Notes: a model not told the origin generated them from the sequence alone. Shown: positions 32,545 through 40,696, numbered from the stretch's first letter. The stretch: 64,000 nt of DNA from Escherichia coli (GCF_044647545.1 NZ_CP172818.1), one strand, 5' to 3'. A program made the numbers and translations.

Positions 32545-32640
32545 ATAAAAAAATAGAGTCTGTCGACATCCGCCAGACTCTACAGTACACACAGCAGTGC
32601 ATCCGCGTCTTAAATCCGGCATGGTCTCCTCTGCGCCGGT
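32545..32640 (-). ncRNA. mcaS: small regulatory RNA McaS (IsrA)
   Basis: Reverse complement reads ACCGGCGCAGAGGAGAC...GAGTCTGGCGGATGTCGACAGACTCTATTTTTTTAT, matching the recalled McaS sequence including terminator hairpin and U-tail; abgR-smrA intergenic location. Confidence 0.8.
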
Positions 32641-34684: not shown

Positions 34685-34917
34685 TGAGATCCCGTTATTT
34701 TTATCAATTTTTGTTGCTATCCGATCGCAAAAAAGCCACGTCATATGATCAGATAATTCTGATAATGATAGACGCTATTTAACACTTCACACGGTTTGTA
34801 TACGGAAAAGCATTTTGCTTTTTGTATTCAATTTAGACAGAATTTTATTAATCATTTCAGGGTAATGGGGTGATGAGATGTTGCGTAACAGGGCCAGAAG
34901 GCTAGACTACAAAATAA

Positions 34918-35922
<1,005 letters not shown>

Positions 35923-35968
35923 CAAAAGCAATTTCTCCGGGATTCTGTATACAAAAACGCCGTAAAGT

Positions 35969-35982
35969 TTGAGCGAAGTCAA
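35969..35982 (+). promoter_or_regulatory. FNR-box-like site upstream of fnrS
   Basis: ttgag-cgaa-gtcaa fits TTGAT-N4-ATCAA, centred about 42 bp upstream of the inferred FnrS 5' end. Confidence 0.5.
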
Positions 35983-36017
35983 TAAACTCCCTACCTATTC
36001 AGGGCAATATCTCTCTC

Positions 36018-36139
36018 GCAGGTGAATGCAACGTCAAGCGATGGGCGTTGCGCTCCATATTGTCTTACTTCCTTTTTTGAATTACTGCATAGCACAATTG
36101 ATTCGTACGACGCCGACTTTGATGAGTCGGCTTTTTTTT
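36018..36139 (+). ncRNA. fnrS: FNR-activated small RNA FnrS
   Basis: Sequence GCAGGTGAATGCAACGTCAAGCGATGGGCG...CGACGCCGACTTTGATGAGTCGGCTTTTTTTT matches recalled FnrS, ending in a terminator hairpin plus 8 Ts; zntB-dbpA intergenic location. Confidence 0.8.
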
Positions 36140-36196
36140 GCCTGTTATTTATCAGCGTCTACCCTTTAAGAGTCCACCCAATGACCGGAGGGAAAT

Positions 36197-36370
36197 ATGA
36201 CGACACTTATTTATTTGCAAATTCCTGTCCCTGAACCGATTCCTGGCGATCCTGTTCCAGTACCAGATCCGATCCCTCGCCCGCAACCCATGCCTGACCC
36301 ACCACCCGATGAAGAACCGATTAAATTGTCGCATCGTGAGCGTAGATCTGCGAGGATACGCGCCTGCTAA
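36197..36370 (+). CDS. hypothetical 57-aa proline-rich small protein
   Basis: ATG preceded by ggaggg Shine-Dalgarno; translation MTTLIYLQIPVPEPIPGDPVPVPDPIPRPQPMPDPPPDEEPIKLSHRERRSARIRAC; lies between fnrS and dbpA; below the 60-aa ORF-track cutoff. Confidence 0.35.
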   Translation: MTTLIYLQIPVPEPIPGDPVPVPDPIPRPQPMPDPPPDEEPIKLSHRERRSARIRAC

Positions 36371-36399
36371 CTTTGCGTCGATGACCACGAGAATAGATT

Positions 36400-37773
36400 G
36401 TGACCGCTTTTTCTACCCTGAATGTTTTGCCTCCCGCCCAACTCACGAACCTTAATGAGTTGGGTTATTTAACTATGACGCCGGTGCAGGCTGCCGCGCT
36501 TCCGGCGATCCTTGCCGGAAAAGATGTTCGCGTGCAGGCGAAAACCGGCAGCGGCAAAACGGCGGCTTTTGGCCTCGGCTTGTTACAGCAAATTGATGCG
36601 TCGCTATTTCAAACCCAGGCTTTAGTGCTGTGTCCTACGCGTGAACTGGCGGATCAGGTGGCAGGTGAATTGCGTCGGCTGGCGCGTTTTCTGCCAAATA
36701 CCAAAATTTTGACGTTGTGCGGTGGTCAACCGTTCGGTATGCAGCGTGATTCGTTGCAACATGCGCCGCATATTATCGTGGCAACGCCGGGCCGTTTGCT
36801 GGATCACTTGCAAAAAGGCACGGTATCACTGGATGCGCTGAATACTTTGGTGATGGATGAGGCCGACCGCATGCTGGATATGGGATTTAGCGATGCCATT
36901 GATGATGTCATCCGTTTTGCGCCTGCATCTCGACAGACGCTTCTGTTTTCGGCAACCTGGCCGGAAGCCATCGCCGCAATCAGCGGAAGAGTGCAGCGCG
37001 ATCCTTTAGCGATTGAAATTGACTCAACAGATGCTCTGCCACCTATTGAACAACAATTTTATGAGACATCCAGCAAAGGCAAAATTCCGTTGTTGCAACG
37101 GTTATTAAGTTTGCATCAGCCATCCTCTTGCGTGGTGTTTTGCAATACCAAAAAAGATTGCCAGGCTGTCTGCGACGCGCTGAATGAAGTAGAGCAAAGT
37201 GCATTGTCGTTACACGGCGATCTGGAGCAACGTGATCGCGATCAGACCCTGGTACGTTTTGCTAACGGTAGCGCCCGTGTACTGGTTGCGACTGATGTTG
37301 CTGCGCGTGGTCTGGATATTAAATCGCTTGAGCTGGTGGTGAACTTTGAGCTGGCGTGGGACCCTGAAGTTCATGTACATCGCATCGGCCGTACAGCGCG
37401 TGCAGGAAATAGCGGTCTGGCGATCAGTTTCTGTGCCCCGGAAGAAGCACAGCGGGCCAATATCATTTCTGACATGTTGCAGATAAAACTTAACTGGCAA
37501 ACGCCGCCAGTTAATAGTTCCATTGTGCCGCTGGAAGCAGAAATGGCAACGTTATGTATCGATGGCGGGAAAAAAGCCAAAATGCGCCCGGGTGATGTAT
37601 TAGGTGCGCTGACAGGAGACATCGGGCTTGATGGCGCAGATATTGGCAAAATCGCCGTGCATCCGGCGCATGTCTATGTCGCGGTGCGTCAGGCTGTTGC
37701 TCATAAAGCATGGAAACAGTTACAGGGCGGGAAGATTAAAGGAAAAACGTGCCGGGTGCGGTTATTAAAATAA
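36400..37773 (+). CDS. dbpA: ATP-dependent RNA helicase DbpA (DEAD-box)
   Basis: 457 aa ORF starting at GTG; DEAD-box motifs (AKTGSGKT, DEAD, SAT, HRIGRTARAG). Confidence 0.9.
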   Translation: MTAFSTLNVLPPAQLTNLNELGYLTMTPVQAAALPAILAGKDVRVQAKTGSGKTAAFGLGLLQQIDASLFQTQALVLCPTRELADQVAGELRRLARFLPNTKILTLCGGQPFGMQRDSLQHAPHIIVATPGRLLDHLQKGTVSLDALNTLVMDEADRMLDMGFSDAIDDVIRFAPASRQTLLFSATWPEAIAAISGRVQRDPLAIEIDSTDALPPIEQQFYETSSKGKIPLLQRLLSLHQPSSCVVFCNTKKDCQAVCDALNEVEQSALSLHGDLEQRDRDQTLVRFANGSARVLVATDVAARGLDIKSLELVVNFELAWDPEVHVHRIGRTARAGNSGLAISFCAPEEAQRANIISDMLQIKLNWQTPPVNSSIVPLEAEMATLCIDGGKKAKMRPGDVLGALTGDIGLDGADIGKIAVHPAHVYVAVRQAVAHKAWKQLQGGKIKGKTCRVRLLK

Positions 37774-40414: not shown

Positions 40415-40696
40415 TTAATTTGAATACAATGCAATTCTCGAGGACTGAAGTTTCTCGCAATTAAAATTTATCAGTTTTACTTTCTGCTCTCTGGAAACGC
40501 CTGCTTCTTTTTTACCTGAGAGCATTTTTTCGCATTCTGATTTCGTTAGTTTAGATTTTGAATATCTTGTCCAGTTAGTAGGAGTGCCACCTTCCTTTTC
40601 AATAGTGGCGGTAATTTTATACATGAACACCTCCATTATTATTTCCAGTGGTTCGTTTATTCCATCTTTCGAGTGCTTCTTTTTCACTTCCACCAT
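40415..40696 (-). CDS. ydaC: prophage protein of unknown function (alternative internal starts give a 69-73 aa product)
   Basis: 93 aa maximal ORF; internal Met candidates (MEVFMYKITATIEKEGG...); overlaps the 3' end of ralR. Confidence 0.6.
   Translation of the reverse strand: MVEVKKKHSKDGINEPLEIIMEVFMYKITATIEKEGGTPTNWTRYSKSKLTKSECEKMLSGKKEAGVSREQKVKLINFNCEKLQSSRIALYSN

Follow-up and report, generated by a model that had tools for sequence, protein, structure and literature searches.

The spacer between zntB and dbpA in the Escherichia coli sequence analysed here (GCF_044647545.1, NZ_CP172818.1; the whole stretch of 64,000 nucleotides is called the window throughout) consists of two catalogued genes, one for the oxygen-responsive sRNA FnrS and one for the small proline-rich protein YnaL. 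The reading we favour, at a probability of roughly 0.8, is that fnrS and ynaL are independent adjacent genes, that YnaL is a translated peptide whose synthesis makes demands on EF-P, and that ynaL and dbpA form an operon in E. coli. Within this analysis, the reading is based on features of the sequence, membership in known families, constraint on the coding frame, conservation of the promoter and synteny; the translation of YnaL, the induction of FnrS under oxygen limitation and the need of PPP motifs for EF-P are taken from the literature, and we infer sigma-S use, the transcription start of ynaL, a role of the peptide as a polyproline-II ligand and a coupling to dbpA. Both genes were already known, FnrS having been described in 2010 and YnaL in 2018, and RefSeq, Rfam and Pfam entries exist. 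The main value of rediscovering two catalogued genes lies in checking that a reading of the bare sequence can spot a real sRNA together with a gene of fewer than 60 amino acids. The comparative results presented below are modest, testable additions that overturn nothing, and they provide handles on the function of YnaL and on the regulation of dbpA in the form of a conserved promoter of apparent sigma-S type, two C-terminal forms of the protein and two invariant leader blocks.

In the window, zntB (34939-35922) is followed by fnrS, a 57-codon ORF, dbpA (36400-37773, with a GTG start) and the convergent gene ttcA; the individual elements described below, from the FNR box to dbpA, all lie on the plus strand. 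The 551 bases around the locus show 100% identity to strain FDAARGOS_497, and among 5426 complete E. coli genomes in which the region is covered, 5392 have the locus at an identity of at least 95%; in these 5392, RefSeq names the ORF ynaL. Layout and spacings are identical in K-12 MG1655, where fnrS (b4699, 122 nt), a gap of 57 nt, ynaL (b4743, 174 nt), a gap of 29 nt and dbpA (b1343) follow one another.

FnrS is an Hfq-dependent sRNA that is produced under oxygen limitation and represses mRNAs that are dispensable in anaerobic growth. A 122-nt small regulatory RNA had been predicted at 36018-36139 from the sequence alone, and this extent was corroborated by Rfam and by the length and flanks of the K-12 fnrS gene. 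The RF01796 model matches 36018-36135 over positions 1-119 of 119, scoring 134.8 bits (gathering score 60, E = 8e-25); the Rfam match alone stops at 36135, and the end at 36139 is that of the 122-nt K-12 annotation, which gives an extent equal to the predicted one. A terminator scan placed an intrinsic terminator at 36112-36139, made up of a GC-rich 8-bp stem with a 4-nt loop (36112-36131; hairpin energy of -12.4 kcal/mol) and the predicted run of eight T (36132-36139). The RNA thus combines a rho-independent terminator with a location downstream of zntB (ydaN), both of which are characteristic of FnrS. In its full model match, its length of 122 nt, the zntB-fnrS synteny, a class-II-type FNR box and the hairpin with T8, the gene is like RF01796/b4699 with no notable difference, and the window copy is E. 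coli fnrS itself.

Upstream of the RNA, the FNR-box-like site claimed in the original prediction was found at 35969-35982 (TTGAGCGAAGTCAA), with 8 of 10 half-site positions matching TTGAT-N4-ATCAA and its centre at -42.5 by index from the first base of the FnrS model. Durand and Storz reportedly placed the FNR box of the FNR-dependent fnrS promoter at about -41.5 in 2010, in agreement with the position of TTGAGCGAAGTCAA. A conserved FnrS pattern served to collect 120 fnrS loci of other Enterobacterales; in 117, the distance of the box from the 5' end of FnrS is unchanged, and in 116 the box matches at 8-9 of the 10 half-site positions. A candidate -10 hexamer, CAATAT (36005-36010), was assigned from sequence; it precedes the 5' end of FnrS by 7 nt, and hexamers of the CAnnAT or CAnnCT type occupy this position in most of 121 loci. 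On our reading, fnrS is transcribed from an FNR-activated promoter, the centre of the box lying about 42 bp upstream, and transcription stops at the strong intrinsic terminator. Induction by oxygen limitation and negative regulation of targets are described for FnrS in PMC8595263, which cites Durand & Storz 2010 and Boysen et al. 2010.

The 57-codon ORF that had been predicted downstream of FnrS was recovered exactly, with the same peptide and the same coordinates (36197-36370; ATG at 36197, TAA ending at 36370), and is preceded at a distance of 4 nt by a Shine-Dalgarno (SD) sequence, GGAGGG (36187-36192); in an alignment of 68 loci, GGAGG and the ATG both form part of the consensus. The original prediction had called this ORF unannotated, which holds only under the 60-amino-acid cut-off of the gene track supplied with the sequence: public databases list it as ynaL, with the entries b4743 in K-12 MG1655 and WP_001296046.1, 'proline-rich small protein YnaL', in FDAARGOS_497. 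The Pfam family PF23677, 'Protein YnaL-like', matches the ORF from end to end (positions 1-57 of 57, E = 2.2e-40, 136.8 bits) and was found in all homologues recovered. The peptide shows complete amino-acid identity to K-12 YnaL as listed by VanOrsdel et al. 2018, and its gene has the same place between fnrS and dbpA. In that study, K-12 YnaL was detected by chromosomal SPA-tagging and immunoblotting, the tagged protein being seen when cells grown in LB were sampled in the exponential and stationary phases, with no anaerobic condition reported, and YnaL was also positive in a screen by tetracycline-arrested ribosome profiling; the study comments, too, that ynaL adjoins dbpA (PMC6001520). A look-up of the exact 57-aa sequence in a collection of 15 billion proteins gave no match; the collection does contain close relatives as well as N-terminally extended calls, and the missing entry is probably due to under-calling of short genes there.

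A short ORF of low complexity, with no structural or functional homologue found, might be a chance frame in a conserved non-coding spacer that yields no functional product, and we weighed this reading against the pattern of substitutions. Over the ungapped 20-codon core of ynaL in 66 distinct sequences, mean column entropy at codon positions 1, 2 and 3 was 0.51, 0.46 and 1.66, the third position thus having about three times the entropy of the other two, and pooled pN/pS was 0.29 in the ynaL frame but 1.75 and 2.72 when the alternative frames were read. Codon-level conservation, which had been proposed as a check on the small ORF along with ribosome profiling, is therefore strong, and a positive profiling result has been published (PMC6001520). 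Its proline content, with 16 of 57 residues, is no product of chance, the ORF being the only one with at least 25% proline among 217 in the window (ATG-initiated ORFs of at least 50 aa, all six frames). Since the constraint is three-periodic and confined to one frame, since SD and start codon are conserved, and since a curated Pfam family, an experimentally detected tagged protein (PMC6001520) and a proline richness unique in the window all accompany it, the chance-frame reading is refuted for practical purposes and we regard it as extremely improbable. By its substitution pattern, ynaL evolves as a protein-coding sequence.

A distance of 48-67 nt separates the FnrS terminator from a YnaL-like ORF downstream in Enterobacteriaceae and in Erwiniaceae (Erwinia, Pantoea, Mixta, Winslowiella); in Pectobacterium, Sodalis, Acerihabitans and Biostraticola the ORF is 130-530 nt away, and none was found in Yersinia, Serratia, Hafnia, Edwardsiella, Dickeya and Brenneria. 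The linkage of fnrS to ynaL is found in more genera than that of ynaL to dbpA, a point of which the searchable literature gave us no earlier account. Only 44 hits emerged when a profile was run against 1.84 billion cluster representatives, which points to a small family, and every named homologue found belongs to Enterobacterales. Almost all of these hits are 43-135 aa long, and we accordingly rejected the YnaL core as a domain of a larger protein family.

Comparison of the homologues showed two C-terminal forms of YnaL, a distinction of which we found no description in the searchable literature. The conserved part of the protein reads DPxPxDPVPVPDPIPRPQPxPDPP, and the core DPVPVPDPIPRPQPxPDPP is conserved in both forms. 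In form A, found in Escherichia, Citrobacter, Enterobacter, Klebsiella indica, Lelliottia, Kosakonia and others, the core continues with ...PDEEPIKLSHRERRSARIRAC, the tail being ...DEEPIKLSHRERRSARIRAC, and dbpA follows 19-30 nt further on in full-length loci. In form B, found in Erwiniaceae, Buttiauxella, Pluralibacter, Phytobacter, Cedecea, Siccibacter and others, the core continues with ...DPDPRPIIDPPPH(x) and the protein ends in ...IIDPPPH; a hairpin terminator within about 5-50 nt downstream of the ORF separates it from the convergent ttcA, at a site without dbpA. Because YnaL proteins of more distant lineages have B-like ends, form B looks ancestral. In several genera, an earlier stop removes the basic tail of the protein, so that this tail, at least, of E. 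coli YnaL is by comparison dispensable. The two forms also serve to separate the YnaL peptide from the dbpA leader.

YnaL is composed of a variable N-terminus of 8 residues, an acidic X-Pro core and a basic tail with 6 Lys/Arg in 16 residues. The proline-rich acidic core (36221-36319, codons 9-41) contains 16 Pro, 7 Asp/Glu and a single basic residue. AlphaFold, run with the family alignment, gave a model of YnaL with no helix or strand (no DSSP elements) and a pTM of 0.22, in which pLDDT is 87-94 over the core and 94 at residues 21-30, and this model fits a stiff, extended rod of polyproline-II type with no globular fold; no relative was found among solved structures in the PDB. The product of the gene would accordingly be pictured as a 57-aa peptide whose variable N-terminus and basic tail flank an acidic, alternating X-Pro core (DPVPVPDPIPRPQPMPDPPP) in the shape of a polyproline-II rod. 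Most likely, the peptide itself is the functional unit and would act as a rigid proline-rich ligand or spacer for a partner protein, since its core is under purifying selection at the amino-acid level even in genera where ynaL is a stand-alone gene. We know of no interaction partner of YnaL, and we found no report of a function for it in the searchable literature.

Alternating acidic/hydrophobic-Pro dipeptides and a predicted polyproline-II rod make YnaL similar to the proline-rich rod of TonB and to other X-Pro spacers; YnaL differs from TonB, however, in being a free 57-aa peptide with no membrane anchor, no C-terminal domain and no significant homology. As a TonB homologue it was rejected, the matches to Pfam TonB_N (PF16031, E = 0.75) and to NCBIfam TonB (E = 3e-4, 20.8 bits against a cut-off of 315) being compositional. 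Similarly, comparisons with internalins and with solved structures gave compositional matches or none, and no match was obtained to models of anti-phage defence systems.

Within the core, codons 35-37 encode PPP (36299-36307) inside DPPPD (codons 34-38), by its sequence a motif of the EF-P-requiring kind, and YnaL thereby has the run of at least three consecutive prolines that marks EF-P-dependent ORFs. All but a few homologues keep PPP (34 of 35 in form A, 35 of 38 in form B, 69 of 73 in total), and in form B it usually falls in the last seven residues. CadC, according to what Ude et al. are said to have described in 2013, is an EF-P-dependent polyproline protein in which a PPP motif tunes the copy number. 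YnaL likewise carries PPP, flanked by D (DPPPD) and conserved across the family, but differs from such EF-P-dependent proteins in consisting almost entirely of proline tract, and its EF-P dependence is predicted. As PPP stalls ribosomes without EF-P (PMC4176338) and the PPP/DPP motifs of YnaL are conserved, its synthesis should by analogy be EF-P-sensitive, with these motifs making it dependent on the factor.

We next turn to how ynaL would be transcribed. An alignment of the spacers between FnrS and the ORF showed a conserved TTTTTTTTGCCT followed after about 16 nt by tCTAccCTtaaag. In the window, a putative -35 element, TTGCCT (36138-36143), takes in the final two T of the tail of the FnrS terminator, and a spacing of 16 nt separates it from a block assigned by conservation as an extended -10 of sigma-S type, TCTACCCTTTA (36158-36168; hexamer TACCCT at 36160-36165). 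In most of 68 loci, 16-18 nt separate a TTGCC(T/A) from the -10 block downstream of it. All 68 keep C-13, T-12, A-11 and T-7 of the block unchanged, and 27-34 nt remain between the block and the ATG. For the extended -10 of sigma-S promoters, Weber et al. 2005 give the consensus KCTAYRCTTAA, as quoted in PMC5650638. The window block has the C-13 of a sigma-S extended -10 and matches this consensus at 9 of 11 positions, a score also reached in about 2% of random 50-nt windows, and scores across the 68 loci range from 8 to 11 of 11, with eleven genomes at 11/11. A generic sigma-70 scan called no ynaL promoter.

The behaviour of the block in rearranged loci bears on whether it belongs to the ORF. 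In Erwiniaceae, about 11 nt inserted behind the FnrS terminator bring a new TTGCCA to the correct -35 spacing. In Shimwellia, where the ORF lies 2 kb from fnrS, the -10 block scores 11/11, and in Intestinirhabdus, where the distance is 1.3 kb, it scores 10/11; in both, it is still found 32 nt upstream of the ATG. Because the block travels with the ORF, unlike an element associated with the terminator, ynaL probably has its own promoter, a call that rests on conservation, and whether this promoter is sigma-S-preferred is evenly balanced. We found no earlier description of the promoter block, or of an own promoter for ynaL, in the searchable literature. Transcription of ynaL would then be directed by TTGCCT, which overlaps the FnrS T-tract, and by TCTACCCTTTA, with its C(-13) and TAA signature of sigma-S-preferred promoters, and would yield a leader of about 25-30 nt with the strong SD at its end.

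Alternatively, ynaL could be expressed by read-through of the FnrS terminator, in which case FnrS would be the attenuated 5' product of an fnrS-ynaL(-dbpA) transcript and YnaL an FNR-induced, anaerobic protein tied to FnrS. The start of the ORF just 48-67 nt past the terminator and its linkage to fnrS in more genera than to dbpA would suit such an arrangement, as would the putative -35 on the T-tract, by which the two transcription units must interact physically; with the last two terminator T shared, heavy fnrS transcription could read through into ynaL or occlude its promoter. The terminator is strong, however, with its 8-bp GC-rich stem, T8 and -12.4 kcal/mol, and the promoter-like block between it and the ORF stays beside the ORF even at a distance of 1.3-2 kb from fnrS. 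Moreover, YnaL-SPA was found in exponential and stationary LB cultures, no anaerobic condition being reported (PMC6001520), and base-pairing of FnrS with the initiation regions of ynaL or dbpA, which we rejected, gave duplex energies no better than those of dinucleotide shuffles (p = 0.28 and 0.54). On balance, we consider expression by read-through improbable and retain separate transcription of the two genes.

An sRNA and a small ORF on the same strand in one short spacer also recall the dual-function sRNAs SgrS/SgrT and AzuCR/AzuC. In contrast to these, where the ORF is inside the sRNA transcript, ynaL lies 57 nt beyond the T8 terminator of FnrS and has a promoter-like block and an SD of its own.

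In E. coli-type genomes, ynaL would be the first cistron of a ynaL-dbpA transcript. The gene for the ATP-dependent RNA helicase DbpA (36400-37773, from the ORF list and annotation) starts with a GTG, separated from the ynaL stop by 29 nt, in line with the range of 19-30 nt in full-length form-A loci, and has a weak SD (GAGA); a terminator scan found no terminator-like site between the two genes. To our knowledge, little seems known about the regulation of dbpA. Two nucleotide blocks in the 3' portion of ynaL are conserved in 29 distinct form-A loci, third codon positions included: block 1, CCGATTAAATTGTCGC (36317-36332), in the 3' part of ynaL and the dbpA leader, is invariant, and block 2, AGATCTGCGAGGATACGCGCC (36344-36364), in the ynaL tail and the dbpA leader, is near-invariant. 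No earlier description of these blocks was found in the searchable literature. Both blocks are kept in the Enterobacter cloacae complex, Kosakonia and Pseudescherichia, where a premature ynaL stop precedes block 2. A deletion in Kluyvera has removed the ynaL SD, the start codon and the entire proline core, leaving dbpA directly next, and here block 1 is largely retained and block 2 perfect. Because both persist in genomes with early ynaL stops and in Kluyvera, which lacks ynaL, the comparison assigns blocks 1 and 2 to the dbpA leader, and the tail of form-A YnaL is by the same token partly not a protein signal. Since the 3' end of ynaL overlaps these leader blocks on what would be a shared transcript, ribosomes on ynaL probably affect the weak, GTG-initiated translation of dbpA.

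In a rival reading, YnaL is mainly a cis-acting leader peptide with no function after release, and a ribosomal pause at DPPPD, arising unless EF-P or Pro-tRNA is plentiful, or the relief of this pause, would set the transcription of dbpA (through Rho or uncoupling) or its translation (through coupling to the weak GTG start). The almost universal PPP/DPP of the family, the proximity of dbpA with its weak SD, its GTG and no intervening terminator, and the nucleotide-level conservation of dbpA-leader blocks inside the 3' end of ynaL are all consistent with this, as is the report that loss of EF-P leads to Rho-dependent and intrinsic premature termination after polyproline ORFs (PMC5021804). Additionally, conservation at the amino-acid level is equally expected of a regulatory nascent peptide, and selection alone is no proof of a free protein function. 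A leader peptide should, however, always have a co-oriented gene downstream, and the form-B ORF (Erwinia, Pantoea, Buttiauxella, Pluralibacter, Phytobacter, Cedecea and others) has none: it keeps the same core, promoter and SD and is still under amino-acid selection, but is followed by a terminator and the convergent ttcA. Conversely, Kluyvera has dbpA at the site without a YnaL ORF. Nor did we detect the alternative RNA structures or terminator expected of an attenuator, an RNA switch between ynaL and dbpA being rejected on a fold z-score of 0.15 and a weak consensus fold of -6.2 kcal/mol, and YnaL-SPA accumulates to a detectable level (PMC6001520). A leader-peptide role is thus plausible for form A but cannot explain form B or Kluyvera, and as an account of the family we regard it as unlikely, though it is the strongest competitor of a functional peptide encoded by an independent gene.

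A dual role can also be envisaged for YnaL as a polyproline peptide driven by sigma-S and gated by EF-P. Ancestrally it would be a proline-rich effector encoded by a gene of its own, with a linkage to fnrS in several families of Enterobacterales, and in the lineage of E. coli, Citrobacter and Enterobacter it would additionally have become the translated leader of dbpA. The 3' end of YnaL would then have been replaced by a conserved dbpA operator (36317-36332 and 36344-36364). If true, this would tie the output of a ribosome-assembly helicase to the polyproline translation capacity of the cell; we give it a low probability, and prefer independent adjacent genes with a functional YnaL peptide and, in E. 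coli, a ynaL-dbpA operon.

Two further ideas on the nature of the blocks were rejected. As mimics of hairpin 92 of 23S rRNA, the target of DbpA, they aligned to 23S positions 2454-2606 and to the whole 23S as shuffles did (p = 0.65 and 0.74), and as repeats or ends of mobile elements they showed no meaningful direct or inverted repeat and are unique in the window. Block 2, likewise unique in the window, contains three rare codons (AGA, AGG and AUA); it also has a GAGGA motif, about 45 nt ahead of the weakly initiated dbpA.

Two stretches spanning the 3′ end of ynaL, the 57-codon gene of a proline-rich small protein (36197–36370, + strand), and the dbpA leader were found to be invariant, or nearly so, at the nucleotide level in 29 loci from many genera: block 1 (36317–36332) and block 2 (36344–36364; near-invariant). 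Both blocks are still kept where ynaL carries a premature stop, and they are also retained in Kluyvera, in which the ynaL core has been deleted. For these blocks, we ruled out a repeat, a stable fold, a role as an FnrS target and mimicry of 23S rRNA.

Among the compared fnrS loci of Enterobacterales (L-numbers), a stop after ...IK(L/M)S(H)R cuts YnaL to 44–50 aa in Enterobacter (L005, L051, L112, L114), in Kosakonia (L052, L120) and in two further loci (L012, L072), and the gap between ynaL and dbpA grows to 57–62 nt, with the nucleotides 3′ of the early stop remaining conserved. Because this stop shortens YnaL in all of these loci, the basic tail of the E. coli protein is dispensable as protein. 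In E. coli E69 (L086), ynaL has lost 11 codons in frame between PVP repeats and encodes a 46-aa protein, which suggests slippage inside the repetitive proline tract.

In Kluyvera species (L055, L073, L121), in the region ~30–150 nt past the FnrS terminator, ynaL lacks its Shine-Dalgarno sequence, its start codon and its proline-rich core as a result of an internal deletion, and dbpA begins ~118 nt from that terminator. Shimwellia (L043) and Intestinirhabdus (L080) carry ~1.1–1.9 kb of extra DNA between fnrS and ynaL-dbpA.

Loci with a stand-alone YnaL (form B) have a hairpin directly 3′ of the ynaL ORF, 5–50 nt past its stop, preceded by A-runs and trailed by T-runs (for example in L106, L101, L022 and L074). 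Given these runs and its position between the ORF and the convergent ttcA, the hairpin resembles a bidirectional terminator used by both genes. In form-B YnaL, the DPPPH motif at the C terminus lies just 2–4 codons ahead of the stop, so that a ribosome pausing there would be near this hairpin.

Annotation of fnrS is less consistent than that of ynaL, since the PGAP annotation of a strain 100% identical to the window around these genes (L001, NZ_CP033850.1) has ynaL and lacks an fnrS ncRNA feature, whereas that of K-12 (L122, NC_000913.3) has both. Rfam additionally placed two sRNAs in the window, McaS (32545–32640, − strand; 117 bits) and the antitoxin RalA (40440–40618, + strand; 225 bits), the latter in its Rac prophage part. 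Another very small gene under the 60-aa track cut-off, the RefSeq-annotated 15-codon ORF ynaN (34878–34925, + strand), is located 13 nt upstream of zntB.
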